Shown here: in pieces, positions 1,249-30,047 of the stretch
Numbering within the stretch: position 1 is the first letter of the stretch
Layout: every line of letters starts with the position of its first letter
Made by a program: the position numbers and the translations under genes
IMG/VR virus record: IMGVR_UViG_3300037418_001222
DNA: 64,000 nucleotides
Strand: one strand, 5' to 3'
Source: a virus
Taxonomy: Duplodnaviria; Heunggongvirae; Uroviricota; Caudoviricetes
The notes under the pieces: model-generated
Seen by the model: the letters and a program-made list of their open reading frames with translations, nothing else
Databases searched by the model: none
What the model was told of the DNA's origin: nothing

Positions 1249-3057
1249 TTATTGTCTAACTGCTTCTACTGTTATAGTTACTTCAGAAGGATCAATTTTC
1301 AATATATCCACATACGATGACGTTATATCAGAATCTTCCGTCACTACATAGAATCTAATTGAGTCTCCGACAAATTTATCACATGAGAAGTTAATTAGCT
1401 GTATCTTTCCAATTGAATAATCTACTGTTCCAATATTCTTCACAAATGTATAGTTTGAATTATCAAGTCTAACTACTCGGAGAGTACCGTTACCATCATC
1501 CTCAACAATTACTGTCTCTCCATTTAATGTAAATGGTGATGAGAAAACGGTCTTAACTTCATTAGTTGGGTGAACGTTAGGAAGTTGTGGAATATCATGC
1601 TCAAGAGAGATTCCAAAGTTGATGTCGATATTTTGAGACGGACCTACTTGTGGTATGATCTTCTTGTATGCGTACACTTTAGTATCATTTGAGATGATTG
1701 ACGCATGAGAAGAATCGATTGTAGCAACTAGTCTTGAACCATATAATGTAGAATTGAAGTCGTCTAAGTTATCGGTGTTAAACTGCGTTATAGAGTTAGA
1801 GATTAGAAGGCTAATTTCATTTGGTTTTAAGTTGGTTACATTTAGATTGTACTTAACCGTAGAATCAATTCGAATGTATGTAAATGTAGGATTCACAAAT
1901 ACTGGTTGAATTGGATTAGCCATCATTGGTTTAATAAAGTTCAAGTATTCTTGCTTCTTTGAGTCAGGAATCAGCTCTAATCCAGATACTGATAGAGCGA
2001 TGAACACCTTACCATATTGTGGTGGATTAACTAACTCACCACCGTACACTGAGATAGCATCAATCTCTGGGAATTGCGATTTTAGAAGAGTCTCGTAATC
2101 TGATGTTGTGATTGCTCTTTGCTGTGTTTGGAAGTGTCGTGGAGCATAGAATCTTATGGACGAAATCGACTCAGGATTGTCTCCACCAATAGCTTTACTA
2201 ATAGTTGTTAAAGAAACTCTTCCAGAGTTGTCTGAGGTTAGATCAGTATCTGGTGAGAATAGAGAAGCACCATTTGGTGTCGCTCCAGATGAAATTCTGT
2301 ACTGAACAGCGATTACAGCTCCATCTGCTGGTTTCCTACCAATAATATCATCACCAAATAGAATCTCATACTTCTCTTGATCAGTAGCCTGCAGGAAGTA
2401 GTTCTTTGAATCAGACGATAATCCAAGTAATGTATCAGACAGCATATACGGGATAATAGTTGATCCATTATCTTCAACTGAGTTAACTACTAATGATGTA
2501 GTGTCTACCATTGGGTTAGATAGAACAAACTGGAGAGATGGATTACTGTAATTCATTACGAACGTTTCAGTGACATAGAATCCTTCGTAGATATCAATAT
2601 CATCTGTTTGGAACTTGTAAGTATTAGTTGTTGGATCTAGATTAGCGTAGTATACCTTAGCTTCATTTGTAGAAAACGTATATGTCTGAAAATTAAATGA
2701 AGTAGTGAACGTAGTCCCCTTTGGGATTAGGAGAGTGTTGTTTCCACTCTGCTCTACGCTAAGTTGTATAGTTGCTGAGGCCGATCTAGCAGATCTAGGT
2801 CTATAATTTAGTTCCTTAGCATGAGAGATAACGGAAGATCTAAGCTGTGCAGAATCCAAAAATGACTCTGACGCAAGCATGTTCTGATAGAATGATTGAA
2901 GAGCGGTGTTATAAGCTAGAAGTTCAATAAGGACAGCAATGTTTGACCCCTCAAAGTCAAAATCTTTGAAAATCGCCTGTGACCTTAAGTGCGTTATTAA
3001 GTTCGCCTTGATAGTATCAAAGTCTAGAGTGGCGATGTTGAGAGAATTGTTTGCCAT
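1249..3057 (-). CDS. gp6: baseplate wedge subunit gp6 (baseplate J-like)
   Basis: 602 aa. N-terminus FKDFDFEGSNIAVLIELLAYNT...SFLDSAQLRSSVISHAKELNYRP matches the T4 gp6 N-terminus as recalled from memory (FLDYDFEGSRLNVLCDLLAYNT...SFMRTANLRSSVVQAAQDNGYLP). Confidence 0.75.
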   Translation of the reverse strand: MANNSLNIATLDFDTIKANLITHLRSQAIFKDFDFEGSNIAVLIELLAYNTALQSFYQNMLASESFLDSAQLRSSVISHAKELNYRPRSARSASATIQLSVEQSGNNTLLIPKGTTFTTSFNFQTYTFSTNEAKVYYANLDPTTNTYKFQTDDIDIYEGFYVTETFVMNYSNPSLQFVLSNPMVDTTSLVVNSVEDNGSTIIPYMLSDTLLGLSSDSKNYFLQATDQEKYEILFGDDIIGRKPADGAVIAVQYRISSGATPNGASLFSPDTDLTSDNSGRVSLTTISKAIGGDNPESISSIRFYAPRHFQTQQRAITTSDYETLLKSQFPEIDAISVYGGELVNPPQYGKVFIALSVSGLELIPDSKKQEYLNFIKPMMANPIQPVFVNPTFTYIRIDSTVKYNLNVTNLKPNEISLLISNSITQFNTDNLDDFNSTLYGSRLVATIDSSHASIISNDTKVYAYKKIIPQVGPSQNIDINFGISLEHDIPQLPNVHPTNEVKTVFSSPFTLNGETVIVEDDGNGTLRVVRLDNSNYTFVKNIGTVDYSIGKIQLINFSCDKFVGDSIRFYVVTEDSDITSSYVDILKIDPSEVTITVEAVRQ

Positions 3058-3088
3058 TGGCTCCAGTTACCATAAGAGAGTCTTCATT

Positions 3089-3096
3089 TATTTATC
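3089..3096 (-). promoter_or_regulatory. candidate T4-type late promoter (GATAAATA, one mismatch to TATAAATA) upstream of gp6
   Basis: Minus strand reads gATAAATAaatgaag...ATG about 40 nt upstream of the gp6 start. Confidence 0.3.
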
Positions 3097-3184
3097 CATT
3101 TTGAGTTAACACTTTCTCGATGTTATCGTTATAAACGACCCAAGAGAATAATTATGATAACGGGCTAGTAATGTTAAAAAACTT

Positions 3185-3213
3185 GTTGACATTTTCCTGG
3201 CACCTGTATACTA
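3185..3213 (+). promoter_or_regulatory. sigma70-type promoter (TTGACA -35, TATACT/TACTAA -10) for the plus-strand cluster 3221-9444
   Basis: cTTGTTGACAttttcctggcacctgTATACTAAgag, then RBS gagagaATG at 3221. Confidence 0.55.
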
Positions 3214-3220
3214 AGAGAGA

Positions 3221-3412
3221 ATGAAAATGCAGGAAAAAGATTTAAGCATTGAATCGAAGAAACTTCTTGACGAAATTGTCAAGGCAATTAATTTTGAAGC
3301 AAAGGATAACCCATTTGCAGAACTTATCTCGAAACTAGATAATATTCCCTATACTCGGGAACAGGCTTTCGATTTAGCTAATAAGAGCATTAAAGAATTC
3401 CTTAAGCATTAG
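3221..3412 (+). CDS. hypothetical protein (63 aa)
   Basis: ORF with RBS directly after the promoter. Confidence 0.45.
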   Translation: MKMQEKDLSIESKKLLDEIVKAINFEAKDNPFAELISKLDNIPYTREQAFDLANKSIKEFLKH

Positions 3413-3414
3413 AA

Positions 3415-3669
3415 TTGGATAGTGGCATGGTGGAGTTTTCTATCGAGGAGCGAGTAATTAGGCTCTTTGAAGACTTGGTTTATAATGAAAATTGCGAGAT
3501 TACCACAGAATCTACTTGGCAGAAGCTAGGGTTAGATTCTCTCGATAAGATCGAGATGGCCATGGATCTCGAAGACGAATTCAATATTGTAGTTCCAGAT
3601 GAAATCATGACACATCTCGAGTGTGTTGGTGACGTGTCCGATTATATCGAAAGAGTTATTTCAAAATGA
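3415..3669 (+). CDS. acyl carrier protein
   Basis: IEERVIRLF...LGLDSLDKIEMAMDLEDEFNIVVPDEI is the ACP phosphopantetheine-attachment motif (E. coli AcpP, recalled from memory: [27 protein letters not shown]). Confidence 0.8.
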   Translation: MDSGMVEFSIEERVIRLFEDLVYNENCEITTESTWQKLGLDSLDKIEMAMDLEDEFNIVVPDEIMTHLECVGDVSDYIERVISK

Positions 3670-3795
3670 GTGAGAGAAATATCATTCGGATCATAGGTGC
3701 GATTTGTCTAACTATCATAGCACTTGCTCTAATTTACACTGGTCACTTTGAATATCTTGGTGGTGTGGCACTTCTAGCATTCTTCCTATACTAAT

Positions 3796-4239
3796 ATGCG
3801 AATTCAATATATCCAAGGAGACTTGATAGAGTCTTCTGAATACGTCATCGCTCACGGATGTAATGCTCAAGGAGTAATGAAATCCGGTATAGCAAAAACT
3901 ATTAGAGAACAATACCCTCTGGTTTTTGAAGATTATTGGCATACATATGAAAGTCAAGGGGACTATTTACGCGTTGGTAGTGTAATTCCGACTGTGTATC
4001 CTGATCGTATTATCTTGAGCATTATCTCTCAAGAATATTATGGTCGAGATCATGATACACGATATGTTTCATATGATGCTATCGCAAAAGCGATAGTCTG
4101 GATAAATGAAAACGGTTACACTAGAGTGGCTTTTCCAAAAATTGGAGCAGGACTTGGCAATGGAAAATGGAGCATTATCTCAAATATCATCGAATCGTAC
4201 TCGGAATTCACTCCGGTTGTATACCACACTGATTCATGA
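3796..4239 (+). CDS. macro domain protein (ADP-ribose binding/hydrolase)
   Basis: IQYIQGDLIESSEYVIAHGCNAQGVMKSGIAKTI and later VAFPKIGAGLGNGKW match the macro-domain GDIT...N.ANxxLxxGGGV and AFPaIStGvyG blocks. Confidence 0.7.
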   Translation: MRIQYIQGDLIESSEYVIAHGCNAQGVMKSGIAKTIREQYPLVFEDYWHTYESQGDYLRVGSVIPTVYPDRIILSIISQEYYGRDHDTRYVSYDAIAKAIVWINENGYTRVAFPKIGAGLGNGKWSIISNIIESYSEFTPVVYHTDS

Positions 4240-4257
4240 TCAAAGACGAGCTAACAA

Positions 4258-4525
4258 AATGTCTAAGAAAATTGATCTCGCTAAGATATTCGGCGTCGAA
4301 GGATTGATCACCCCGAAAACGTTGGTCAATGAGACACCAGAAGATATTAATAAAAAAACACCAAATGATGCGGCTTGGGATATCCGAGCTCTCCTAGACG
4401 AACTAACAATCCGAGTAGCTTCTAAGGACATCCACGGGTGTATTGAGTGCCTTAACGCCATCCAACGCCGTATTGATTTCATGCAAAAGATCGCTAACGA
4501 GATCAAGAACATGGGAAAGAAGTAA
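4258..4525 (+). CDS. hypothetical protein (89 aa; start trimmed from the ORF-track 4106 to remove overlap with the macro gene)
   Basis: ATG at 4258 (MSKKIDLAKIF...) follows the macro-gene stop. Confidence 0.4.
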
Positions 4526-4944
4526 TGGAAATCTACGGCTTCTTTGGTGAGTATAGGTTTCTGTCTAATTTTTATGAGTCACCATTTGAGCTTAATGGTA
4601 AGAAATACCATACCGTAGAGCACTTCTTCCAAGCTTCTAAGGCTTCTAATGAAGAAGACCATGAATATGTTAGGAGCGCTTATTCACCCGGGGTTGCAAA
4701 GCACCGAGGAAGGCGAATTCCTCTTCGAGATGACTGGGAGAAGGTCAAGATCTCAATTATGACCGAGGGTGTTATTGCCAAGTTTGAACAAAATCCCGAA
4801 CTCGGTGAGAAATTGGCCAACACTAGCCCCAAAAACCTTGTAGAATACAATACTTGGGGTGATACATATTGGGGAGTATGTGGAAACAAGGGTTGTAACA
4901 ATCTTGGAAAGATCTTAATGTTTATTCGAGAGACTTTCATATGA
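4525..4944 (+). CDS. NADAR-domain protein (YbiA-like; NAD/ADP-ribose metabolism)
   Basis: FFGEYRFLSNFYESPFELNGKKYHTVEHFFQASKA ... AKFEQNPELGEKL...LVEYN.WGDTYWGVCGNKGCNNLGKILMFIRE aligns motif-for-motif with E. coli YbiA as recalled from memory (FSNFA...GKTWPTSEHYFQAQKF...AKFEQHAELR...YWGDGG.GKGKNRLGYLLMELRE). Confidence 0.8.
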   Translation: MEIYGFFGEYRFLSNFYESPFELNGKKYHTVEHFFQASKASNEEDHEYVRSAYSPGVAKHRGRRIPLRDDWEKVKISIMTEGVIAKFEQNPELGEKLANTSPKNLVEYNTWGDTYWGVCGNKGCNNLGKILMFIRETFI

Positions 4945-5135
4945 AGGTAATACTTAAAAGAGGCCAAATTCCACAAGAAAAGTGGTATCAAACTACTTGT
5001 TCTAACTGTAATACTCATTTTAAGTTCCAAAAGAAAGACTCAAGATACAATTCATCGGCTCGAGATATAGTACACCTAATAGAGTGCCCGGAATGTGATA
5101 AGACGCTTTATCTATCAACTCTTATCGAGTATTAA
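4941..5135 (+). CDS. small zinc-ribbon-like protein (64 aa; CSNC...CPEC)
   Basis: Two CxxC pairs; ATGA overlap with the NADAR stop. Confidence 0.4.
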   Translation: MKVILKRGQIPQEKWYQTTCSNCNTHFKFQKKDSRYNSSARDIVHLIECPECDKTLYLSTLIEY

Positions 5136-5136
5136 A

Positions 5137-5289
5137 ATGAATGTCGTGTATCTAATGAAGAAAGATCCGGAAGAAAGACACCTAAATCGTTATCCCAAAG
5201 GTCGTGAAGGAATTTGTAATGTTGATTCTAATCCCAGTTTTTATCCTAAGCGCGGCAGCCGCCGGAACCGTAGCCATAATTCGAAATAG
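5137..5289 (+). CDS. hypothetical small basic protein (50 aa)
   Basis: Start trimmed to ATG 5137 (MNVVYLMKKDPEE...). Confidence 0.25.
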   Translation: MNVVYLMKKDPEERHLNRYPKGREGICNVDSNPSFYPKRGSRRNRSHNSK

Positions 5290-5297
5290 GTGATTGT

Positions 5298-5807
5298 ATG
5301 ATCATCCCATCTATTATTGTGCTGGTTACCACTGGACTAACAGTAACATCTGGAGCTGGATTAGCATTCAATCAGCGAGTTCCTAGATGGTTGTTTGCTA
5401 TTGGATACTCTTGGTGGTGGCCATTTCGGCAAGATGATGTGGCCTCTCTATTAGCGCTTGATCTTGATACCGATGAGAGTTGTTCTCAATGGAATTATAA
5501 TCGTATAGGATGGCAAACTCTAACTAGTCAGGATGGTAAGTTTCAAATCGTTTGTGATGGAATGAAAGAAGGCCGATACAGAATTACCATTAGGGATTAT
5601 AAGGTTTCTGGAGGAGTGCATGATGTTAGAGCCACCGTATGGGGTGATCAAAAGTTGTATCGTGCTATTGGTCGATGGAAGCGTCGCCGGAACACCTCTA
5701 GTAAGTCTGTGGAAGTGATTGAGGATAAGAAATCTTATAATAGAGCTCTGAAAGCGACTTCTGAACATCTTCTTAAGAAACACGGAAACAAGACTCTTGT
5801 CAAGTAA
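5298..5807 (+). CDS. hypothetical membrane/secreted protein (169 aa, N-terminal TM)
   Basis: Hydrophobic N-terminus IIPSIIVLVTTGLTV. Confidence 0.5.
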   Translation: MIIPSIIVLVTTGLTVTSGAGLAFNQRVPRWLFAIGYSWWWPFRQDDVASLLALDLDTDESCSQWNYNRIGWQTLTSQDGKFQIVCDGMKEGRYRITIRDYKVSGGVHDVRATVWGDQKLYRAIGRWKRRRNTSSKSVEVIEDKKSYNRALKATSEHLLKKHGNKTLVK

Positions 5808-5944
5808 GAAAAAGAAGAACAAAGAACCAGAACCAAAATTTATGAAGTGTGCCATATGCACTGAATGTTATGAGGATATCTACCGACCAGGAAAATGCGT
5901 GTTTGGTGGACCTTATCATGGTTATATTATGATGGAGACTGAAA

Positions 5945-6325
5945 ATGAATAGAGAATTTGTCGAAAAGTGGGTTCATGAGCTTAGGACTACTTCATATGA
6001 GCAGCACCAGTTCGGTTTTTCTACTCCAGTGGCTAGATTTGATGAAGATCCAGAAGAGATGAAGTATGAAGGCTTCTGCTGTTTGGGACTAGCTAACTAC
6101 ATTGGAAGTGGTGATCCTGCAGATACTCATGTTTTGTGCCATAATACTCCTGAGCTCCATACTATTGAAATCGGTGACACCGGAACTGAGCTTATTGGTG
6201 GACGTTCTCTATGGTCTCACCTGGTGGCCATGAATGACGGAATAGGAATCTATGAAAGTTCTCCACGCTCATTCTCTCAAATTGCCGATTTTATCGAAGA
6301 GAAGCTTCTGAAAGAAGAGAACTAA
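5945..6325 (+). CDS. hypothetical protein (126 aa); paralog of 14410-14754
   Basis: Shares KWVxxLRxxxYxQ...CCLG...NDG...FxxIADFIE with the minus-strand ORF at 14410-14754. Confidence 0.5.
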   Translation: MNREFVEKWVHELRTTSYEQHQFGFSTPVARFDEDPEEMKYEGFCCLGLANYIGSGDPADTHVLCHNTPELHTIEIGDTGTELIGGRSLWSHLVAMNDGIGIYESSPRSFSQIADFIEEKLLKEEN

Positions 6326-6558
6326 TGATCTTTTTAGTTATTGTTCTTGTATGGCTGATTGGAATTCCGATCATGTACTACGCGGTGATTAGGTGGGGTA
6401 AAGGCTCTGAAAGTGATGCCGACTTTACCATGTGCCTATTATGGCCACTTATCCTCCCATTCGCTGTTTGTTATGCTTCTTTTGAAGAGATTAAAAAAGT
6501 AGCAAGAGCTCACAAGGAAGCCGACCGAGAGAAAAAGAAGTTAAACTCTAAGAAGTGA
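6325..6558 (+). CDS. small membrane protein (77 aa)
   Basis: Two predicted TM helices; ATGA overlap with the upstream gene. Confidence 0.45.
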   Translation: MIFLVIVLVWLIGIPIMYYAVIRWGKGSESDADFTMCLLWPLILPFAVCYASFEEIKKVARAHKEADREKKKLNSKK

Positions 6559-7398: not shown

Positions 7399-7650
7399 AT
7401 GGCTAAGGCTATTGTAACCGAACGTAAAGTAGAGATCACCTTGACTCTATCTGAAGAGGAGGCTATCATGCTTCATGCCACGATTGGAAACTCCTTCATA
7501 GGAACGCAAGAGTCTCCACGCAAGTATAGTGACGCTATATACCATGCTCTAGATAGTGTTATTCAAGAGAACGGCCTCATGTCTCGAAGTGTAAAGTGCT
7601 GTAGTCTTCTTCCTCCCGAGGTGATTAAATTCAAAGACGGTGAGTTCTGA
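7399..7650 (+). CDS. hypothetical protein (83 aa)
   Basis: ORF within the co-oriented cluster. Confidence 0.45.
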   Translation: MAKAIVTERKVEITLTLSEEEAIMLHATIGNSFIGTQESPRKYSDAIYHALDSVIQENGLMSRSVKCCSLLPPEVIKFKDGEF

Positions 7651-7808
7651 AAAGATAATGACGCAGAAGATCTATCAATATAAGAATGTAATCTTCAGCT
7701 CACTGAAGACGAGCTCAATACATACGGGCTCGAAGGATGGGCTCTAGTCTCGGAGATGCGTGTCGAGGGAGAGTACGCCTTTAAGTATACGTTCAGGAGA
7801 GAGCTGTA

Positions 7809-8144
7809 ATGATCAGAGTGGTCCTAGACTATTTCAAGAATGACAATTCATACGTACTAGTCAATCCAGACAATGTCGTCTATGCGTACGATGCCATCTC
7901 AAATGAAAAGAGTGTTCCTAATAATCATCCATGTCTGCTTCTGAGATTATCCGACGGAACGGAAATAGTTTGTAAGTCTCTCACCGCATGGGACTGGGAG
8001 AGACTCTACTACTCGAAGCACCTGTGTAAGTGGAGATGGCCGGATAATCATGACTTCGTGTATCCACAACCTAAGGATCGACTGAGACCAACTCTAGAAG
8101 AAAAAGAAAAAGAAAGTCCTCTCCTCAAGCCATTGAACACGTGA
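7809..8144 (+). CDS. hypothetical protein (111 aa)
   Basis: ORF. Confidence 0.5.
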   Translation: MIRVVLDYFKNDNSYVLVNPDNVVYAYDAISNEKSVPNNHPCLLLRLSDGTEIVCKSLTAWDWERLYYSKHLCKWRWPDNHDFVYPQPKDRLRPTLEEKEKESPLLKPLNT

Positions 8145-8151
8145 AGAATCG

Positions 8152-8337
8152 GTGATGTTTATAGTTCTTACACGATCTTGGGAATCTTCATGGTACCAAT
8201 GCTTCGAGGATATAGAAGCCGCTAAAAAGAGTTTTGAATATGGTAGGCGCTATCACCCAAACTGCTGGCTAATAGAAGGTTCCGTAATTCAAGAGAAGAT
8301 TTACGCTGAGAATAATGAAGGAGAGATTCCGTGGTGA
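8152..8337 (+). CDS. hypothetical protein (61 aa)
   Basis: ORF. Confidence 0.4.
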   Translation: MMFIVLTRSWESSWYQCFEDIEAAKKSFEYGRRYHPNCWLIEGSVIQEKIYAENNEGEIPW

Positions 8338-8340
8338 GTA

Positions 8341-8715
8341 ATGATGGATAACATCGGACATAAACCAGGGTGCATATTCAACATTGAGTCAGGATCATGT
8401 ACGTGTGGATGGATAAGCGGTATGGATCGCGGTGAAAGAGAGAAGCTCGTCAAGAAGAGATCCAAGGAATATCAGCTAGAGACTCGCCTCAGAGCTATTG
8501 AAGAGCGCCTTGAGCTACTATTCGAGAAAGTGCAATTAACTCCAGCACCGCTAGATCCCTATACTCTACTAGAGGAGTGGCTCGAGTTACACTTCGATCC
8601 GTGCTTCTACGATCATCACGGATATTGTCAGTCTCACTTCCTTCAGGACAAGGGCTCGTGTATAGTCGAACTCACGAGAAAATTTTTAGAGGAGAGAACA
8701 GATGAAGGACGATAA
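8341..8715 (+). CDS. hypothetical Cys/His-rich protein (124 aa)
   Basis: CxC, CxC and HHGYC clusters. Confidence 0.5.
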   Translation: MMDNIGHKPGCIFNIESGSCTCGWISGMDRGEREKLVKKRSKEYQLETRLRAIEERLELLFEKVQLTPAPLDPYTLLEEWLELHFDPCFYDHHGYCQSHFLQDKGSCIVELTRKFLEERTDEGR

Positions 8716-8863
8716 GACGTGGCTATTCCGAGCTCTCAAGAACTACATGAGATACGACACCACCTCCAACTCGTGGGACCAGGAGATGGCTATTGACGAG
8801 CTCATCTCCGCTCTAGACGACCATATCGATTCTCGTATCAAAGAAATGCTTTCAGCGAAATAG
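8702..8863 (+). CDS. hypothetical protein (53 aa; not in ORF track)
   Basis: ATG 8702 overlaps the upstream stop; hand-translated MKDDKTWLFRALKNYMRYDTTSNSWDQEMAIDELISALDDHIDSRIKEMLSAK. Confidence 0.3.
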   Translation: MKDDKTWLFRALKNYMRYDTTSNSWDQEMAIDELISALDDHIDSRIKEMLSAK

Positions 8864-8889
8864 TTGTCCATTAAGAGCACGATTTTTAT

Positions 8890-9444
8890 ATGATGAAGAG
8901 TCCGAATGTTTTTCTGTATCGAGACATACTACCACCATTCTCGATAACGGTTCACAGTATCGCAGAAGAAATTGAATTCGAACAGAATTACATCAATATA
9001 TACGGAAAAACTCTACCAGAGCCAAGACTCACGGCTCTATACGGTGATCTCCCCTATACGTACTCGAATACTAAGCGATATCCTCGTCCATGGAATAAGA
9101 CTCTATCAGACATCAAACATCTAGTAGAAGAATATTCGGAGCATAGCTTTAATTCTTGCTTGCTTAACTACTATAGAGACGGAAGCGACTCGATAGGGCT
9201 ACACGCAGATGATGAGAGAGAACTAGGGGATAATCCCGTAATAGCGACACTATCGATTGGCGACTCTCGAACAATGTATCTGAGGTGCGAGCAGCTCGAG
9301 AAAAAATTTGAACTTCACCATGGTGACCTCTTCATAATGCTCGGTGATACTCAAAAGTATTGGAAGCACGAGATAAGGAAACAGAAGAACAAGGGTCCGA
9401 GAGTCTCTCTCACGTTCAGGAAAATTTTAGCGGCGCGCGATTGA
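8890..9444 (+). CDS. alkB: AlkB-family 2OG-Fe(II) dioxygenase (alkylation repair)
   Basis: Ordered AlkB motifs GLHADDE (HxD), LHHGDLFIM, H in YWKHEI, RVSLTFR (R-x-LTFR). Confidence 0.8.
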   Translation: MMKSPNVFLYRDILPPFSITVHSIAEEIEFEQNYINIYGKTLPEPRLTALYGDLPYTYSNTKRYPRPWNKTLSDIKHLVEEYSEHSFNSCLLNYYRDGSDSIGLHADDERELGDNPVIATLSIGDSRTMYLRCEQLEKKFELHHGDLFIMLGDTQKYWKHEIRKQKNKGPRVSLTFRKILAARD

Positions 9445-9753
9445 ATTGAGGAATGCTTCTCGAGAAAAATTTCACGAGAAGGAACACTTCAATGGACCTA
9501 TCGAGAAAATTCTGTGAGAGAGGGAACGCTTCAATGGACCCTCATGGATACCAACCTTTGTAATCGTTTGTATGGGACCCATTTAGGCACATTGCCATCC
9601 CTTCGACGAATATATCAAGGTCGAACAGAATTGTCAACAAGTTTATTCAACATCGAGTTGAATATTTTCCTTTACAAAACTACCCGGACCTATTAGAACG
9701 AGAACATCAAGGGGATTGGTTCTCTTTGACGGTTCTTTGAAAGGATTGGGATT

Positions 9754-10041
9754 ATGGAAACGAAGGAACTCTCGACTCGCGCCAAGTTTCGTCTGGAGAT
9801 GGTGAAACTGGTAGTCGACAAGAACCCGAAGAAACCCGGATCTATGAGTTTCGATCGGTTCGAGAAGTACTTCGAGGTGGACAAGCTGGGCGACTACACC
9901 GTCCAGGATTGTCTCGACGCGGGAGTGCGGATGGACGATATCCAGCACGACCGAGCTCACGGGTTCATCATCGTGGGTGAGTCGGAGATCGAGTTGTACG
10001 AAGCGACTCGGCCTCGGGAGATGGTCGAAGGCGACCTCTAG
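9754..10041 (+). CDS. hypothetical protein, member of a 3-copy paralog family (NPKKPGS...RMDDxxHDxAHGFI)
   Basis: NPKKPGSMSF...GVRMDDIQHDRAHGFIIV; GC-rich coding. Confidence 0.5.
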   Translation: METKELSTRAKFRLEMVKLVVDKNPKKPGSMSFDRFEKYFEVDKLGDYTVQDCLDAGVRMDDIQHDRAHGFIIVGESEIELYEATRPREMVEGDL

Positions 10042-10051
10042 AATACCCAAC

Positions 10052-10086
10052 GAGGGGAGATCGATAAGGTCTCCCCTCTCTTTTTG
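10052..10086 (+). terminator. rho-independent terminator
   Basis: GAGGGGAGA-tcgataagg-TCTCCCCTC followed by tcTTTTT. Confidence 0.7.
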
Positions 10087-10182
10087 TGTGTGTTCTACGG
10101 ACATACGACCGACACTATCACGTATCTGATCAGTAGGGTCGCGACGGATACGAGCAACGCGAAGGCGACCATGAACCACATC

Positions 10183-10731
10183 TCAGTTATCCCGACAGAG
10201 CGGAGTGTCCACCACGGATCGGACGTAGGACTCGTTCCCACGAGGGTTGTACCCGAGGATGAGTCCTACGACGCGCCCTTCGGAGTCCAGGACCGGACCA
10301 CCACTCATCCCCTCCTGAAATTGTGCCGATCCGGTGACGACCCACGAGTTGAGCTCGCCCTTCGAGAACGACGGGTTCGATCGAACCACCTGTCCGGTCG
10401 GAGTGATCGAGATCGTCACGACGGATCCCTCGTGATACCCGATCGCCGTGTAGGTCTGCCCTGGGTCGAGTGGTTTGCAGAGCACCTGGAGTGCCGGCGC
10501 CTCGGAGTCGGACCGGAGCATCGCGAAGTCGACGTCTGGAGCCATGCGATTGGACTTCACCCGGACGTCATGAATATTGCATCGTCCGAATTCCCATACA
10601 TGCTCGTCCGTGGCGTATCCATTCTCGACTCGGAACGCGGTTCCGAACTCTACGTCTCCGGAGTTCCGATCATCGCATCGAATCGGCAGGACCTGGGTCG
10701 AGGCCATCAATGCTAGAGCCGCTACAATCAT
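10183..10731 (-). CDS. secreted trypsin-like (S1/chymotrypsin-fold) serine protease
   Basis: N-terminal signal peptide (IVAALALMAST); GMSGGPV is a GDSGGP-like Ser box; TDEHVWEF (His) and DVDFAML (Asp); ~58% GC. Confidence 0.55.
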   Translation of the reverse strand: MIVAALALMASTQVLPIRCDDRNSGDVEFGTAFRVENGYATDEHVWEFGRCNIHDVRVKSNRMAPDVDFAMLRSDSEAPALQVLCKPLDPGQTYTAIGYHEGSVVTISITPTGQVVRSNPSFSKGELNSWVVTGSAQFQEGMSGGPVLDSEGRVVGLILGYNPRGNESYVRSVVDTPLCRDN

Positions 10732-10757
10732 CTAAAACCTCCTCATCTGATACGCCT

Positions 10758-10785
10758 ATTCTAATGGGTATGGAGGAAATGTCAA
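10758..10785 (-). promoter_or_regulatory. sigma70-type early promoter, conserved cassette (minus: TTGACA-N16-TAGAAT)
   Basis: Minus strand reads TTGACAtttcctccatacccatTAGAATagg; drives the protease gene. Confidence 0.6.
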
Positions 10786-10885
10786 CAACTTTATTTTCGC
10801 CGACGAACGGACACCTGCATGGCGAGGCACAGCCCGGAGATGATCAGTAGCTCGACGACAGTGACTATTCCCATCACGGTGCTCG

Positions 10886-11086
10886 TCATAGTTCGACTCC
10901 TCTCTCCACGATTCCGAACCCGACCGAGTCGTCACCCCAGTCGATGAGAACGACTTCTAAGCCGAGGTTTTTCAGGATACGATCGACTTCCTCCAGCGTT
11001 CCACGAGGATCAGTCTTCCAATCGACCGCGCTCTGGAACTTTGGAGTCCTATCGAGTCCGACTTCTTGGACATTGACCTCTCTCAT
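10886..11086 (-). CDS. hypothetical protein (66 aa)
   Basis: ORF with RBS AGGAGG directly after the cassette promoter. Confidence 0.4.
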   Translation of the reverse strand: MREVNVQEVGLDRTPKFQSAVDWKTDPRGTLEEVDRILKNLGLEVVLIDWGDDSVGFGIVERGVEL

Positions 11087-11106
11087 CGGCCACCTCCTAT
11101 TATCAG

Positions 11107-11136
11107 AATACTAATCTGACGGTGGAGAAATGTCAA
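11107..11136 (-). promoter_or_regulatory. sigma70-type early promoter cassette (TTGACA-N17-TAGTAT)
   Basis: Minus: TTGACAtttctccaccgtcagatTAGTATtctgataataGGAGG. Confidence 0.6.
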
Positions 11137-11151
11137 CGGCTTTATTTTTGT

Positions 11152-11466
11152 TTATGCCGGAGTGAACTCGTCCTCTTCGTCGTTCAGGAAGAACTTCACG
11201 ATCGAGTAGTCATACTCGGAATCGCTCCTCTTATCCTCGGATCGAGTGTCAAAGATGCGACATCCCGAGTCGTATCCTCGTCCTCCAATCTCGACGAGAC
11301 GAATCTCCCAGAGCGCTCGAACCCAACCCTGTCGACCCCATGAGTCGAGGTAGTCGTACACCTCCTCCTTCGCCTCGCTCAGCGTCTCTCGCTGAAAGTC
11401 GTGAGATCGGTGACCACGATAGTTGTCCGGATCGTACACACAATACAGCAGTAGAAATCGTCTCAT
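11152..11466 (-). CDS. hypothetical protein (104 aa)
   Basis: ORF, GC-rich. Confidence 0.45.
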   Translation of the reverse strand: MRRFLLLYCVYDPDNYRGHRSHDFQRETLSEAKEEVYDYLDSWGRQGWVRALWEIRLVEIGGRGYDSGCRIFDTRSEDKRSDSEYDYSIVKFFLNDEEDEFTPA

Positions 11467-11870
11467 GATACCTCTCCTGGTAGCCTACGACCAATCGTTC
11501 CATCGATGAGCTCGACGGACTGGACGTAGGTGTGCTGAAACAACCAACGAAAGAAGTCCTCGGGGTCGTGCCACGCTCCAGGAACCGGATCGAGCATCAC
11601 GACTACTTCGAGCTTCATCGTCGACGCGATCGGTGACACCGGGTAAGCGTTCGGGTTCTTCCTAGCCATAGCAATCGAACCTCCTCTCAGCATCGCCATC
11701 TCGTAGCACCGAAATATGGCGGTAGCCTCTCCATCAATCCCAGCCTCATCGAACTGTCGGAGCGCGTCCGGAACATTCTTCGCGGTGCACATCCACAGAT
11801 CCGAATCGGCTCCATAGACGATTAGATACGTGCTCTCTTCTTCCATGTCTACCTCTCCTATCCAATACAC
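11463..11870 (-). CDS. hypothetical protein (135 aa)
   Basis: ORF; 4-nt ATGA overlap with the downstream gene. Confidence 0.5.
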   Translation of the reverse strand: MYWIGEVDMEEESTYLIVYGADSDLWMCTAKNVPDALRQFDEAGIDGEATAIFRCYEMAMLRGGSIAMARKNPNAYPVSPIASTMKLEVVVMLDPVPGAWHDPEDFFRWLFQHTYVQSVELIDGTIGRRLPGEVS

Positions 11871-11872
11871 CC

Positions 11873-11901
11873 ACTCTAATAGGCGCTGGATGAAATGTCA
11901 A
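11873..11901 (-). promoter_or_regulatory. sigma70-type early promoter cassette (TTGACA-N17-TAGAGT)
   Basis: Minus: cgccTATTGACAtttcatccagcgcctatTAGAGTgggtgtattggataGGAGAGG. Confidence 0.55.
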
Positions 11902-11910
11902 TAGGCGATG

Positions 11911-12258
11911 TTATAACCAAGTAGCGCAACAGCGAGGATCCTCGCTGTACTTGATCCATCGCTTCACGAAACCGTTGCCGAACGTCATCGCTCCTTCCTC
12001 TCCATCGAGGCTCGGGCTCGTCCACCAGAATGCTCCTCGAGGCTCGCAGCGCAGCACATTGATGGCGATGATTTCCGCGGTCTTACCACCGCTGTGCGGA
12101 TTAAAACCAGGATCATAATGCAGTCGTAGCAGCGCCTCGCAGAACGTGTCGACCTCATCCTTGTGGATGATCTCCTTGTTGTAGGAGTTGCTGTTCTGAA
12201 AGAGATACTCGACGATGCAGAAGTCGCTGACAGGGAGCGAAGAATAATCTGGTCTCAT
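11911..12258 (-). CDS. hypothetical protein (115 aa)
   Basis: ORF. Confidence 0.5.
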   Translation of the reverse strand: MRPDYSSLPVSDFCIVEYLFQNSNSYNKEIIHKDEVDTFCEALLRLHYDPGFNPHSGGKTAEIIAINVLRCEPRGAFWWTSPSLDGEEGAMTFGNGFVKRWIKYSEDPRCCATWL

Positions 12259-12385
12259 GTCTACCTCTCCTTAGAAGAGTGGTGGCCGACGGGAACAGGG
12301 AAACGCCAACCACCACTCATCGAAAGAGAGTCGAAGCTCGAAGGAGGGTCGGGGTCGAGACTCCGTAGCCCCGACCCCTTCCCCA

Positions 12386-12691
12386 TTAGCGACCGAGCTC
12401 GAAGGGCTGGGTCAGTTCGATGAAGCCGTGAGCCGCATCGTGACGGACGTCGTCCATCCGATAGCCGGCGGCGAACAGCGCGGCGACGGTGACGGGCTTT
12501 CCCTTCGCGGCCTTGCAGGCCTTGATGAGAGCATCGTACCGCACCGCCGAAGCCGAACCGGGCTTCTTGGGGTTGGTGGAACCCTTTTCCGTCAGGGTGA
12601 CCGTCGACCCTTCGCGCCACTGGGTGCGCTTCGACTTGGTCTCGGCCTCGGCATTCTCGATCACTTCCGCTTCGTTGGTCTTCGGCATTTC
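12386..12691 (-). CDS. hypothetical protein (101 aa), second member of the NPKKPGS paralog family; start trimmed from the ORF-track 13063 because that ORF reads through the promoter
   Basis: RBS aaaAGGAGGtaagtgaaATG (MPKTNEAEV...); ...NPKKPGSASAVRYDAL...GYRMDDVRHDAAHGFIEL. Confidence 0.5.
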   Translation of the reverse strand, partial: EMPKTNEAEVIENAEAETKSKRTQWREGSTVTLTEKGSTNPKKPGSASAVRYDALIKACKAAKGKPVTVAALFAAGYRMDDVRHDAAHGFIELTQPFELGR

Positions 12692-12737
12692 ACTTACCTC
12701 CTTTTCCGCATCGGGGTAATTCCCAATCGGTATGATC

Positions 12738-12765
12738 AGTCTATACAAACCGGAAGAAATGTCAA
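12738..12765 (-). promoter_or_regulatory. sigma70-type early promoter cassette (TTGACA-N16-TAGACT)
   Basis: Minus: gttaTTGACAtttcttccggtttgtaTAGACTgatc. Confidence 0.5.
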
Positions 12766-12865
12766 TAACTTTTTTTTCGATATTGAAGATACTGCTACCG
12801 TCGAAGATTCCCCTTATACACGCGCGGACGTAATTCCTTTTATCTACACGCGAAGGCCTACTAGT

Positions 12866-12988
12866 GTCGTCGTCTCGGCTATCATTTCTATATACGCGAG
12901 ACGACGACAGTACACGCCGAGCGAGCGAGCGAGCGAGCGTACAGCCGTCTCGCGACGAGCGTACTGATGATGGGTCTCGCGACGAGCG
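12866..12988. repeat. non-coding repeat block: 13-bp perfect inverted repeat, (GAGC)5 microsatellite, 15-bp direct repeat x2
   Basis: TGTCGTCGTCTCG (12866-12878) / CGAGACGACGACA (12897-12909); gagcgagcgagcgagcgagcg at 12919-12939; GTCTCGCGACGAGCG at 12947-12961 and 12974-12988. Confidence 0.6.
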
Positions 12989-13122
12989 AGCTGAAAGATT
13001 TTGTTCGATGATGTGTGAGTGAGCGAACAGCGCCGCGAGCGTCTCATTGAGTTGGATGGCCACGTCGAGCGATCATACGTGGGAGCGAGCGAGATGACGG
13101 TTGTTTTCATAACAGGGATTCT

Positions 13123-13282
13123 TAACCATGTGGTTTAATTACAACCTGAAGTTCTTTCTTCAGCTCATCGATTTCTTGTCTCTGTCGTATTATAGTACGA
13201 GCCATCGATACGATATGTCCTGGATGCACGCTCGTTAGTCCGTCTAGAGACTTCGCTATCGTCGCTACAGCATTATCGGTCA
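13123..13282 (-). CDS. hypothetical small protein (52 aa; not in ORF track)
   Basis: Hand-translated MTDNAVATIAKSLDGLTSVHPGHIVSMARTIIRQRQEIDELKKELQVVIKPHG; start overlaps the upstream stop. Confidence 0.25.
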
Positions 13283-13570
13283 TCGATTCTTCTTCCATAC
13301 CGTCTTATCGAACCACGAGCGCATCTGTTTCAACTTACGGAGAGATGGCATTCGATAGAATCTGACAGGATTTCCATATTCGTTATATGGTTCGTGACGG
13401 AAGCCGTATGTTCCTTTGTAGTCGATTTCTTTGATCTCGGAGACGTGATAAGTTCGTTCGTGTTTCCAGACGTCGATTACGACTACGTGAGACTCGTCTA
13501 CACAGCGAACTACGCGTCCCGGTATGAATAGGTCTTCTCCACCGACGTCGACTATCGTGTTTCGCCTCAT
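13280..13570 (-). CDS. hypothetical protein (96 aa)
   Basis: ORF. Confidence 0.45.
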   Translation of the reverse strand: MRRNTIVDVGGEDLFIPGRVVRCVDESHVVVIDVWKHERTYHVSEIKEIDYKGTYGFRHEPYNEYGNPVRFYRMPSLRKLKQMRSWFDKTVWKKNR

Positions 13571-13848
13571 GAGTTACTCGATAGCTTGTTCTCAACGGCA
13601 TCCGCGAGCTCGCCGAACGTGCTCTTGTTGAGTATGTATCTTGGCGGATCGGGGATCATTCGATAGCATCCGTCGAAGCCTCTCCAATCATCCGGACCGA
13701 CGTTTGGATCGTCACTTCGCCCTGTCTCTTTCAGGAACTGAGCCATGGCACATCTCTCGGGAGAGAGGTAGTTGTACTTCTCGTCTCTGGGCTTCGTCTT
13801 CACCCAGTCCAAGAACTCTCGCGCCGTAAAGTCGAGGTTGGCCATCGT
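13567..13848 (-). CDS. hypothetical protein (93 aa; start trimmed to the RBS-preceded ATG)
   Basis: aaAGGAGAaagaacgATG (MANLDFTAREF...). Confidence 0.45.
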   Translation of the reverse strand, partial: TMANLDFTAREFLDWVKTKPRDEKYNYLSPERCAMAQFLKETGRSDDPNVGPDDWRGFDGCYRMIPDPPRYILNKSTFGELADAVENKLSSNS

Positions 13849-13927
13849 TCTTTCTCCTTTTCCTACTCTCCGAACTTCTCTTGGATCGTTAGAGTTCTCG
13901 AGGATTTGATAAGTCTTGCTCGGCATA

Positions 13928-14395
13928 TTAAACCTCATGGTTAAGTGTTCTCGAGTTCCGGTTGTTCGTTTGATTCCTCCGAATCCACTGGTTCGCTTCA
14001 TCTTCGCTGATGAAGCCACGCCAAGTGATTTCGTCGACCCTCACTCGACTCATGAGACCAGAGCGACGACCGCACGCTGGACATGAAGCTGACATCTCGT
14101 AGATGTACCAGCGTTCATCTGTCCCATGAAATACCGTCTGATATTGAACGGCAGGAGCACCAGGTCGGTTAATGACTCTAGGTAGCTCTCGAGCGTTTGA
14201 TTGAAGGATAAATCCAGAAGCCGCCATGATCATACACGACGTCTCTCGATATTTCTTTACGTACTCGATTGGAGCTCGAACCTCGAGACCCCCGTCAAAA
14301 GACGGACCGTCGATAACGACTACCTCTTCTCCTGTCGACCAAACAACCGGTTTATCCCAGTCTACTGGTTCGACGGGATTCTTGAAGTCGATCAT
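13928..14395 (-). CDS. hypothetical protein (155 aa)
   Basis: ORF. Confidence 0.5.
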   Translation of the reverse strand: MIDFKNPVEPVDWDKPVVWSTGEEVVVIDGPSFDGGLEVRAPIEYVKKYRETSCMIMAASGFILQSNARELPRVINRPGAPAVQYQTVFHGTDERWYIYEMSASCPACGRRSGLMSRVRVDEITWRGFISEDEANQWIRRNQTNNRNSRTLNHEV

Positions 14396-14409
14396 CGCTT
14401 AGGTCCTTC

Positions 14410-14754
14410 TTATAGCATCTTCTCGATGTAGTCGGCGATCTCTTCGAACGTCTTTCCTTGGTCGTTCATATCGGCGAGTCTGTTTACAATGGTGGCTCTA
14501 TATGATCCGTCTCGAGCCGGTGGTGGGAGTCCTACTGAAGCGCATAATTCGTCAGGAGGTAATGAGCAATTACCATCACACATACGATAACCATCGTAAA
14601 AATTTTCGTCCCATTTTCCGGCGACATCAACAAGGACACCCAGGCAGCACATCTTATTACTGCCTGCCATAGCGAGGTGTCCATCGAGTTGTGTGTACTC
14701 TCCAGAACGAAGAGCCGATACCCACTTCGCTTTGATCTCCGGGTTCATTGGCAT
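14410..14754 (-). CDS. hypothetical protein (114 aa), paralog of 5945-6325; start trimmed because the ORF-track start lies inside the promoter
   Basis: AGGTGGtctgaaaATG; KWVSALRSGEYTQ...CCLGVL...NDQGKTFEEIADYIE. Confidence 0.5.
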   Translation of the reverse strand: MPMNPEIKAKWVSALRSGEYTQLDGHLAMAGSNKMCCLGVLVDVAGKWDENFYDGYRMCDGNCSLPPDELCASVGLPPPARDGSYRATIVNRLADMNDQGKTFEEIADYIEKML

Positions 14755-14779
14755 TTTCAGACCACCTCCTATTATCAGT

Positions 14780-14809
14780 ATTCTAATCTGATAATGAGAA
14801 AATGTCAAT
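14780..14809 (-). promoter_or_regulatory. sigma70-type early promoter cassette with embedded stem-loop (TTGACA-N17-TAGAAT)
   Basis: Minus: gcctaTTGACAttttctcattatcagatTAGAATactgataataGGAGGTGG; ATTATCAG/CTGATAAT inverted repeat brackets the -10. Confidence 0.65.
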
Positions 14810-14814
14810 AGGCA

Positions 14815-15027
14815 CTATTTCGGTTGATACCAGCCGGCCAGGATCATCGCTCGATCCCATTTCTCTCTATTGTCTTTGCTCAGTGCCGGTAGAAATGGAT
14901 GTTGACCATTTCTCTCGTAAGTAATGGAATCGACATAAGCTTTCGACCTCGGTTTATATCGTTTGCAGATGATATTGTCTCCATCCACTTCGAATTCGAG
15001 ATGAAAGCGAGGTGCTTCGTCTCTCAT
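14815..15027 (-). CDS. hypothetical protein (70 aa)
   Basis: ORF. Confidence 0.4.
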   Translation of the reverse strand: MRDEAPRFHLEFEVDGDNIICKRYKPRSKAYVDSITYERNGQHPFLPALSKDNREKWDRAMILAGWYQPK

Positions 15028-15175
15028 GATAGAGTCTCCAGCGATTTCTTGAGTTTGTTTTTATTTTGACATAGAAGAGGAAAGTTGTGGCGATGACGAG
15101 CTTCTGCTAGAGATCCAATACGAAGTCTCTTACCGCAAAGGCATTTCGTATATTCAGACCAGTGGCGGCGGGCGC

Positions 15176-15478
15176 TCATTTTTCGTCCCTCAGATCTTCA
15201 GTGACTTCGAATGTTCCACCCCTCTGTAAACAGAGTTGAATGAAGCAATCCTTGCACACGCTCATCGAGCCGAGTATTCCATCATCTGACTTTGTTTCAG
15301 TCACAATGAGCTCGGGTTTATTTCTGCACCGCCACATTCTGTCACTTCGGCGCGCACCACCCACTTTCTCGCCCGTCACCGGATTTTCTCCAGCCGGTCC
15401 AAACGCGAATGGCGACCACGTCTTATTGGGACGTAGTGCCTGACACTGAGTACGATCAGGCGGTGTAAGATCTGTCAT
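15176..15478 (-). CDS. hypothetical Cys-rich protein (100 aa)
   Basis: ORF. Confidence 0.45.
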   Translation of the reverse strand: MTDLTPPDRTQCQALRPNKTWSPFAFGPAGENPVTGEKVGGARRSDRMWRCRNKPELIVTETKSDDGILGSMSVCKDCFIQLCLQRGGTFEVTEDLRDEK

Positions 15479-15744
15479 GATATTCCCTCGAATAGAGTAG
15501 CCTCGAGCGCCTCACCGACCGTGATCGCATCTGGTTCGACCCAGTCGCCGTTGGCCTCCTGAACGAGTATCGTCTTTCCGGTGAGACTGAGTCGATCATC
15601 GAGGATCATCATCATTTCAGAAATGTTCGTCCCGACGATAACATCGACTGTAATCCAACAGTCCATAATGAACTGCAAGACACAGACCATAATACCACCA
15701 TCGTCTAGCTTCGTGGCCGTGACCCGATACGTAATATTATTCAT
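15475..15744 (-). CDS. hypothetical protein (89 aa; start trimmed to MNNITYR with GGAGG RBS)
   Basis: cgaggcGGAGGccagcATGaataat; removes the 89-nt overlap with the upstream ORF. Confidence 0.45.
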   Translation of the reverse strand: MNNITYRVTATKLDDGGIMVCVLQFIMDCWITVDVIVGTNISEMMMILDDRLSLTGKTILVQEANGDWVEPDAITVGEALEATLFEGIS

Positions 15745-16135
15745 GCTGGCCTCCGCCTCGATAGCCTCCCGGCATCTCGTCATCCTCATCTGGTTGGAAG
15801 CAGTCGGTATACAGCTTCGCCTCACTTAGGCGATCCTTCACGATTTCGATTCCGATCTTCTCGAGGGCCTCATCGAGTGTCTGGAACTCACCCAAGTCCT
15901 GAGAGTCATATTCGGCAGGATGTTCGTATGTTTGATATGAGATCTGGACGTCTTTGGATACCAACCATCCGGTCTGCTCGTCGAAGCATTTCGATTCCGG
16001 AGGCCACAGTTGATAGTTGTTCGATATCCTATAAGATCCTTCCTCGTCAGAGAACGCGACCTCGCCGAGCCACATATATTCGGCGAAGGTGCCTATGAAG
16101 AGCTTGTCGCGCTCTTTCTGCTTCTCGTCTCTCAT
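15737..16135 (-). CDS. hypothetical acidic protein (132 aa)
   Basis: ORF. Confidence 0.5.
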   Translation of the reverse strand: MRDEKQKERDKLFIGTFAEYMWLGEVAFSDEEGSYRISNNYQLWPPESKCFDEQTGWLVSKDVQISYQTYEHPAEYDSQDLGEFQTLDEALEKIGIEIVKDRLSEAKLYTDCFQPDEDDEMPGGYRGGGQHE

Positions 16136-29870: not shown

Positions 29871-30047
29871 AGCAAATTTATCGATATCTAGATTCCCATT
29901 ATAAAGGGAAAATTCAATACCAAACGCAATCCAGATTGCCCTTCTGAATGGCCTTCTGGAATATTTTCGATTAAAAGGGTATATCCTATTGCTAATTGAT
30001 AACCTTGATTCTCTGATCATCTGAGTCAATGTTGCCTTACATTCCTA

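Follow-up and report, generated by a model that had tools for sequence, protein, structure and literature searches.

A macrodomain gene and a NADAR gene linked in a divergent T4-like phage, candidate erasers of ADP-ribose on phage DNA

Two families of phage proteins have been connected with the removal of ADP-ribose from DNA. AdfN of phage Bas32, a NADAR protein, neutralised the toxin DarT1 when cells were not infected and allowed three phages sensitive to DarTG1 to form plaques again, but did not act against DarTG2 (PMC11825919). The other family is AdfM, consisting of macrodomain proteins. PhiKZ gp104 (AdfM) strips the ADP-ribose made by DarT2 from DNA and is required for resistance to DarTG2 (PMC13309987), and a clean knockout of tk.4 makes T4 sensitive to DarTG2 (preprint 10.1101/2025.11.20.689424). 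A bacterial macrodomain protein, SCO6735, removes thymidine-linked ADP-ribose in vitro as well as in cells, and mutation of its Gln85 kills this activity (PMC9411070). In a survey of 21,191 viral proteomes, the domains Macro, NADAR, SLOG and Nudix were found to co-occur in DNA viruses more often than by chance; the same survey describes tandem NADAR-Macro proteins and phage NADARs neighbouring NadM and NadV (Iyer, Burroughs, Anantharaman and Aravind 2022; PMC9503650). A macrodomain gene (3796-4239) and a NADAR gene (4525-4944) were found close together in IMG/VR virus record IMGVR_UViG_3300037418_001222 (Caudoviricetes), of which a stretch of 64,000 nucleotides, the window, has been analyzed. 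A reading made from the letters alone (the sequence-only reading) had noted these genes and a neighbouring gene for an acyl carrier protein (ACP), and the list of open reading frames (ORFs) has all three on the plus strand at the positions given there.

The pair probably represents two orphan antitoxin-like glycohydrolases that clean ADP-ribose off phage DNA bases. Substrates, expression timing and the defences countered are predicted here by homology, from experiments with T4, PhiKZ, Bas32 and SCO6735. On this basis the phage would make both enzymes during infection, probably early, and both would take off the adducts that host ADP-ribosyltransferases (ARTs) attach to phage DNA bases. The NADAR protein, which is of the AdfN type, is predicted to cleave guanine-linked ADP-ribose as made by DarT1, and the macrodomain protein, of the AdfM/Tk.4 type with an SCO6735-like Gln site, is predicted to cleave thymine-linked ADP-ribose as made by DarT2. 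The side-by-side genes would give dual-specificity protection against DarTG-like defences, covering both known DarT specificities. Both enzymes are regarded as orphans because no ART is encoded beside the pair, according to Pfam and PADLOC searches of the flanking ORFs. A complete phage-borne DarTG-like toxin-antitoxin system was ruled out on the same searches.

The NADAR protein (139 amino acids) matches PF08719 at 103.1 bits against a Pfam cut-off of 35.1 (E 2.5e-29) and is placed in phrog_1017 (2.4e-43), the PHROG that also holds Bas32 AdfN. NADAR homologues occur in 531 cultured-phage records, the best ones sharing about 50% identity and including T5-like Markadamsvirinae. Escherichia phage IrisVonRoten is Bas32, as its locus tags show, and the window protein shares 50% identity with bas32_0066 (Bas32 AdfN) along the full length (E 1e-43). 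In an alignment of 39 NADAR sequences E32, K39 and D113 are invariant, while E107 and W116 are nearly so. In T4 AdfN the counterparts of E32 and K39 are E36 and K43, catalytic residues that have been mutated there. The catalytic and ADP-ribose-binding residues of PnNADAR, with their roles, have been described as E43, K50, E125, D130 and W133 (PMC11543638, PMC11825919), and the window protein has equivalents of all five. T4 gp30.3 is a distant relative, matching only over 51 N-terminal residues (E 1e-6) and belonging to PHROG 652 instead of 1017. Membership of the T4 gp30.3-type AdfN group was ruled out on this short match, the other PHROG and the presence of Glu instead of His at the third catalytic position.

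The macrodomain protein (147 amino acids) has a Pfam match to PF01661 over residues 20-127 (35.3 bits, cut-off 22, E 1.3e-8). It is placed in phrog_335 (4.3e-39), together with T4 Tk.4 (1.3e-65) and PhiKZ gp104 (8.2e-43). It shares 30% identity with Tk.4 over the full length (BLASTP E 9e-18) and 24% with gp104 (BLASTP E 5e-9), and its N23 aligns with the mutated catalytic Asn of gp104. An AlphaFold2 model of high confidence (predicted local distance difference test score, pLDDT, 92.7) displays the three-layer alpha/beta/alpha macro fold. Comparison of this model with the PDB by Foldseek gave 228 matches at E <= 0.001, and those listed are nearly all macrodomains or macrodomain-derived designed proteins. 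The top match is the DarG of Thermus aquaticus with bound ADP-ribose, followed by BT1257, SCO6735 and TARG1, with template modelling (TM) scores of 0.73-0.81. In the family alignment of 38 members, N23, Q79, Y90-V91, P114 and I116-G117-A118-G119-L120 are invariant. A profile built from this alignment and searched against solved structures matched BT1257 (E 3e-22), the DarG macrodomains of M. tuberculosis and T. aquaticus (E about 2e-16), SCO6735 (E 4e-16), Poa1p (E 1e-13) and TARG1 (E 2e-13). In structure and profile comparison alike, these proteins outrank the macrodomains of YmdB, alphaviruses and macroH2A. Among PADLOC models the best match is DarG (1.1e-13), and the same holds for NCBIfam. 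In SCO6735 and BT1257 the motifs aligned with Q79 and N23 are IGQH and CN, Q79 taking the position of SCO6735 Q85. Judged by its sequence, the protein is a Gln-type member of the DarG/TARG1 (ALC1-like) class as well as of the AdfM phage family.

The sequence-only reading had made its two identifications dependent on profile searches and on catalytic residues. Pfam places both proteins in the families named, and the residues are present in the NADAR (E32, K39, E107, D113 and W116) as well as in the macrodomain protein (N23, the GAGL loop and Q79). The anti-DarTG role proposed there is supported in silico by the precedents of Bas32 AdfN, at 50% identity, and of the AdfM proteins of T4 and PhiKZ, in the same PHROG.

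A scan of IMG/VR with the single macrodomain protein gave no matches, and alignment-based scans were therefore needed. In total, 80 macro-seeded and 80 NADAR-seeded IMG/VR loci, with flanks of up to 10 kb, were scanned with hidden Markov models of both families. A NADAR gene was found within 10 kb in 9 of the 80 macro-seeded loci and a macro gene in 12 of the 80 NADAR-seeded ones. The linked partner was on the same strand in all cases, and in most of them within 1.6 kb. Deposited phage genomes (2.3 Gb) contain the two families in 531 and 1070 records, from which well below 1 chance co-occurrence per set of 80 loci is expected, by rough arithmetic with no correction for genome size or phylogeny. 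Clustering at 50% identity divides the linked macro proteins into at least 11 clusters, and the macro-NADAR association is therefore not one inherited event. Gene order and spacing vary as well. Locus L162 has macro followed by NADAR with a gap of 4 nucleotides, in L074 NADAR precedes macro and the genes overlap, and in L028 the spacer is 146 nucleotides, while other linked loci have unrelated genes between the two. In contigs related to the window the genes are kept, together with the 88-amino-acid ORF between them (o88, see below), at about 50-75% amino acid identity. Family membership, fold and conservation of the catalytic residues, as well as conserved synteny and recurrent linkage, are established for this pair.

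Loci L046 (7865-10519) and L048 (8921-10516) harbour apparent T4 gp30.3-type NADARs, recognized by eye from their His motif. Same-strand genes for Gln-type macrodomains follow 0.5-1.5 kb downstream. Differing NADAR subtypes thus pair with one macro family. Locus L141, which was considered as a pair of a Lys-type DarG-like macrodomain and a NADAR, was not relied on; its ORF is weakly macro-like, has no Pfam match at 1e-4 and shares 28% identity with gp104.

Several observations, concerning both proteins and their genomic setting in other phages, weigh against a role of the pair in cleaning DNA. Glu in the catalytic position of the last beta-strand marks the YbiA subfamily, whereas DarG1 has Asp and T4-like NADARs have His there (PMC11543638, PMC11125620). 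The window NADAR has this Glu (E107, conserved in the family), in the column where T4 gp30.3 has its His. It also matches TIGR02464 ('riboflavin biosynthesis intermediates N-glycosidase') at 97.4 bits against a cut-off of 73.7. Its best match among PDB sequences is E. coli YbiA (2b3w, 1.7e-25), the DarT1-linked Geobacter NADAR (8bau) being more distant (2.9e-10). These data would suit a housekeeping function, in which the NADAR, as a YbiA-like N-glycosidase, breaks down reactive intermediates of riboflavin and the macrodomain protein is an ADP-ribose-1''-phosphate phosphatase or O-acetyl-ADP-ribose deacetylase, the two having no joint function. Annotations by the Joint Genome Institute (JGI) and in phage records point the same way ('ribA/ribD-fused', 'phosphatase', 'O-acetyl-ADP-ribose deacetylase'). 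However, TIGR02464 cannot tell the two functions apart, because the validated Bas32 AdfN matches this model as well (66.3 bits). Pfam and PHROG searches of the neighbouring ORFs detected no riboflavin genes near the NADAR gene, and same-strand linkage of macro and NADAR genes in at least 11 lineages is unexpected for unrelated housekeeping enzymes. Such a function is considered highly improbable. In vitro, guanine-linked ADP-ribose is hydrolysed by YbiA of E. coli as well as by T4 gp30.3, yet neither shields cells from DarT1 (PMC11125620), so that activity in vitro is no guarantee of a physiological role.

Of the 338 positions in the DarG model, the macrodomain protein covers no more than 1-135, scoring 40.5 bits where the cut-off is 250, and it lacks the catalytic lysine of DarG (K80) and TARG1 (K84), the invariant Q79 being found there. 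It is not a strict DarG-type enzyme, since it has neither this Lys nor a DarT-binding domain nor an adjacent toxin. Catalysis of the TARG1/DarG Lys(-Asp) type was ruled out, as an invariant Gln replaces the Lys and either Gly or Ala stands in place of the TARG1 Asp. Of its structural neighbours, SCO6735 and TARG1 also hydrolyse protein-linked ADP-ribose (PMC9411070), and guanosine ADP-ribosylation of RNA is reversed by NADARs (PMC11833690). The two enzymes might thus reverse ADP-ribosylation of protein or RNA instead, whether introduced by the phage's own Alt/Mod-like transferases, the two enzymes then being regulators, or by host ARTs such as CmdT-like or Rhs toxins. It fits with this idea that ARTs are common in T4-like phages (Alt in T4), and the 2022 survey has NADARs co-expressed with ARTs in such phages (PMC9503650). 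However, no ART was found among the scanned ORFs of the window, which represents 64 kb of about 178 kb, and the closest characterised relatives of both enzymes show DNA-linked phenotypes. A role in protein or RNA de-ADP-ribosylation is judged decidedly unlikely.

The genomic setting in other phages raises the matter of soluble substrates. A NAMPT-Macro-NAD synthase-NADAR cluster is present in L111 (7218-10420, confirmed with Pfam), L168 and L172, and L074 harbours an NMNAT-Nudix-NADAR-Macro cluster (7404-9473), likewise confirmed with Pfam. In those phages both hydrolases are therefore physically tied to NAD+ synthesis genes. Location of the pair inside NAD+ salvage clusters suits soluble ADP-ribose derivatives equally well (PMC9503650). 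The enzymes would then act on immune signals or toxic metabolites instead of DNA, with cyclic ADP-ribose isomers, His-ADP-ribose, ADP-ribose-1''-phosphate and O-acetyl-ADP-ribose as candidates; the bond types would be split between the two enzymes and the ADP-ribose fed back to NAD+ salvage. Apart from the clusters, it speaks for this possibility that the window phage itself has NAMPT and NMNAT-Nudix genes, that the macro family has historically been annotated as 'A1pp phosphatase' and that Poa1p is a structural neighbour. The same was argued on contextual grounds by Iyer et al. (2022; PMC9503650). However, all tested phage members of both families act on DNA-linked ADP-ribose and protect against DarTG (PMC11825919, PMC13309987, preprint 10.1101/2025.11.20.689424). 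A literature search found no published phage macro or NADAR protein that degrades a Thoeris signal, and the NAD+ genes of the window lie 48 kb away on the other strand. Action on soluble substrates is the leading alternative, but is considered rather unlikely.

The NAD+ salvage genes of the window are all located on the minus strand. NAMPT (52607-54028) matches PF04095 at 2.3e-56, NAMPT_N at 4.8e-28 and NF006629 at 606.6 bits, the cut-off of the latter being 405. A bifunctional NMN adenylyltransferase/Nudix protein of the NadM-Nudix type (55222-56271) matches CTP_transf_like (PF01467) at 1.4e-9 and NUDIX (PF00293) at 4.7e-14; its match to NF003786 (2.3e-95, 319.8 bits) stays under the cut-off of 397. 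Between them lies a gene for an RlmN/Cfr-like radical SAM RNA methyltransferase (54248-55210; TIGR00048 2.5e-27, below cut-off), an unusual partner for NAD+ salvage genes. Osterman et al. reportedly described in 2024 a NAMPT and NMNAT route, named NARP2, that is found in phages such as Vibrio phage KVP40 and counters NAD+-depleting defences. The window pair presumably corresponds to this NAD+-reconstitution route; NAMPT and NMNAT are likewise both encoded here, with the difference that the radical SAM gene separates the two. The sequence-only reading had spoken of a whole NAD+/ADP-ribose toolkit. Both salvage genes are indeed real, but they are 48 kb away from the macro-NADAR pair, on the opposite strand and in no shared operon with it, so that the toolkit exists as gene content and not as an operon. 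The part of the original idea that concerns Thoeris and SIR2-type effectors derives from these distant genes and not from the macro-NADAR pair.

For the preferred reading, removal of ADP-ribose from phage DNA, it also matters whether the host carries DarTG. Searches of positions 3000-6500 with megablast against 50,697 deposited phage records gave no nucleotide matches. The macro and NADAR proteins occur with identical sequence on a JGI metagenome contig of 177,910 bp. The baseplate-wedge protein gp6, encoded next to the gene block, shares at most 41% identity with its counterparts in Caulobacter phage Cr30 and Sinorhizobium phiM12-like phages, and gp32-, gp59-, ligase- and tail-related genes are also found in the window. 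The source is a divergent, uncultured, environmentally sampled T4-like phage. A permuted transfer-messenger RNA (tmRNA) of the alphaproteobacterial type is encoded at 62132-62458 on the minus strand (Rfam RF01849 111.6 bits, RF04321 115.5 bits), with the tag peptide ANDNSFAGDMALAA according to ARAGORN. This type of tmRNA suggests an alphaproteobacterial host, in agreement with the best matches of gp6 in Caulobacter and Sinorhizobium phages, and the host is probably an alphaproteobacterium.

The two genes are part of a tightly packed block on the plus strand that starts just past gp6, which is divergently transcribed (1249-3057, minus strand). The genes between 3221 and 5135 either overlap or are separated by gaps of at most 19 nucleotides. 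The first gene of the conserved block codes for 63 amino acids (3221-3412); it is weakly conserved at the same position in the related contigs L010-L012, and Pfam and PHROG profile searches gave no matches for it. It is followed by the ACP gene and by an ORF of 42 amino acids (3666-3794) between the ACP and macro genes, which overlaps the ACP stop codon. The hydrophobic product of this ORF is probably a membrane protein, and small ORFs resembling it sit at the same position in L010-L012. After the macro gene comes o88 (4259-4525), the stop codon of which shares one base with the start of the NADAR gene. The end of the NADAR gene is in turn overlapped by the start of a zinc-ribbon ORF (64 amino acids, 4941-5135), which has a phrog_2834 match of 3.8e-9 and weak zinc-ribbon Pfam matches below the cut-offs. 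Contig L009, which is identical, has this last ORF too, whereas no clear counterpart was seen in L010 and L011. A promoter and terminator scan of positions 2900-5400 gave site counts no higher than in shuffled sequence, and no terminator-like site was found within the ACP-to-NADAR block; the sole one (3265-3284) lies inside the 63-amino-acid ORF. A single transcription unit is plausible, since the genes are tightly packed and the ACP-to-NADAR block lacks a terminator-like site. A TTGACA...TATACT pair with a spacer of 15 nucleotides was spotted by eye at 3186-3212; it is not counted as evidence here.

Although the sequence-only reading had the macro gene immediately upstream of the NADAR gene, the two are separated by o88. 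The helical o88 protein has 14 detectable homologues in a large protein collection, all of 79-93 amino acids and with 51-77% identity. In each of the related contigs read, its gene is flanked by the macro gene and the NADAR gene. Searches of Pfam, PHROG, PADLOC and PDB sequences gave no matches. A helical hairpin is seen in the confident structural model (pLDDT 84.6), and its only likenesses are to generic hairpins, ribosomal protein uL29 being an example. The label 'chorismate mutase', given by JGI to one homologue, is unsupported. It can be concluded that o88 is a real, conserved and clade-restricted gene. It may be speculated that macro, o88 and NADAR form a three-component cassette in which o88 is a needed accessory factor, guiding both hydrolases to replicating phage DNA or binding DarT-like toxins, or that the cassette processes an unrecognised ADP-ribose-derived molecule together with the ACP. 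This is regarded as unlikely; as an accessory factor, o88 would resemble the 'unknown phage factor' reported as needed for full activity of T4 AdfN.

The presence of an ACP gene next to the pair was correctly predicted from the letters. The product matches PF00550 at 39.5 bits against a cut-off of 20.8 (E 6.9e-10), and its translation contains the phosphopantetheine serine motif GLDSLD. It also matches phrog_5934 'acyl carrier protein' (1.5e-13) and TIGR00517 (7.3e-15), the NCBIfam ACP equivalogs remaining below their cut-offs. Translation starts more likely at ATG 3427 (80 amino acids, 3427-3669) than at TTG 3415 (84 amino acids), since gene callers chose the ATG on identical contigs. The location of the ACP gene upstream of the macro gene is conserved only among the closest relatives. 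Cultured-phage records yielded 19 weak homologues, and at none of the matched positions does the annotation name a macro or NADAR gene. A functional link of the ACP to the pair was found unsupported, and the ACP is treated as a neighbour and not as a component, because its adjacency is narrow and its homologues are few and weak. A CarF/plasmanylethanolamine-desaturase-like lipid desaturase is encoded elsewhere in the window (59808-60299, minus strand; PF10520 4.8e-42), and may be an alternative functional partner of this ACP.

Several other features of the window were recorded. An AlkB-like 2-oxoglutarate-Fe(II) oxygenase (8890-9444; PF13532 3.6e-30, PHROG 'alkylated DNA repair') is encoded on the same strand as the NADAR gene, 4 kb downstream. 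One may have the impression, and only that, that undoing base damage directly is a theme of this region. The GC content is 0.49-0.55 at 10000-16000 and 30000-32000, compared to 0.37-0.44 in most of the window, and Pfam gave no matches for those larger ORFs of the 10-23 kb region that were tested. These GC-rich stretches may be foreign or fast-evolving DNA. A protein of 1013 amino acids with ten collagen triple-helix repeat stretches (32484-35525, minus strand; PF01391 7.1e-84) is encoded beside a glycine-rich-domain protein (30814-32133, minus strand). Both are probably tail fibre or decoration proteins. An SPFH/Band 7 protein (57150-57980, minus strand; PF01145 4.3e-26) and two tRNA genes, Ile-GAT (27022-27105, plus strand) and Arg-TCT (61138-61211, minus strand), are present as well.

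The biology of the two enzyme families has already been published, AdfN in 2025, AdfM in 2025-26 and the co-occurrence of Macro and NADAR in 2022. What is new is the conserved 88-amino-acid gene and the unexplained ACP. With this locus, a divergent T4-like lineage joins those phages in which DNA de-ADP-ribosylases of both kinds are encoded, here in physically coupled form. This coupling supports the idea that phages pair guanine-specific and thymine-specific erasers as one anti-DarTG module. The occurrence of the same pair within NAD+ salvage clusters of other phages raises the question whether these enzymes act on DNA only or on soluble ADP-ribose products too. If o88 is an accessory or specificity factor, it bears on the question raised for T4 AdfN; otherwise published biology is confirmed.

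In comparison with described systems, the window and the collected loci are instances of the Macro-NADAR co-occurrence reported in 2022. That survey prefers soluble ADP-ribose substrates, and the 88-amino-acid gene and the ACP arrangement are not described in the text consulted (PMC9503650). The AdfM proteins Tk.4 and gp104 resemble the window macrodomain protein in being single domains of about 150 amino acids with a conserved N23 in phrog_335, and DarG is the best defence-model match for AdfM and the window protein alike. At the position of the catalytic lysine Tk.4 has 'TQ' and the window protein 'SQ', sharing the Gln, whereas gp104 keeps a DarG-type lysine (FPTK). In T4 the macro and NADAR genes are about 67 kb apart, while they are linked in the window. 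Bas32 AdfN has the same Glu-type catalytic set as the window NADAR and, like it, stands alone as a 'naked' NADAR that lacks DarG1's N-terminal extension. However, Bas32 is a T5-like member of the Markadamsvirinae and the window phage is T4-like; moreover, in the neighbourhood examined in Bas32/OSYSP no macro gene is annotated, unlike in the window.

SCO6735 and BT1257 have Gln in place of the DarG/TARG1 Lys, HxCN and GxGL loops similar to those of the window macrodomain protein, and TM-scores of about 0.8 to its model. They are bacterial chromosomal proteins with about 24-28% identity to the window protein, and according to the alignments Lys34 of SCO6735, a residue important for DNA binding, is replaced by Ser in the window family. 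Unlike DarG2, the window macrodomain protein comes without the C-terminal DarT-binding domain, K80 and an adjacent DarT. Unlike DarG1, the window NADAR has no N-terminal extension and carries Glu instead of Asp (PMC11543638). With DarG2 and DarG1 together, however, the window pair shares the same two hydrolase folds and the same predicted chemistry, the removal of ADP-ribose from thymine and from guanine.

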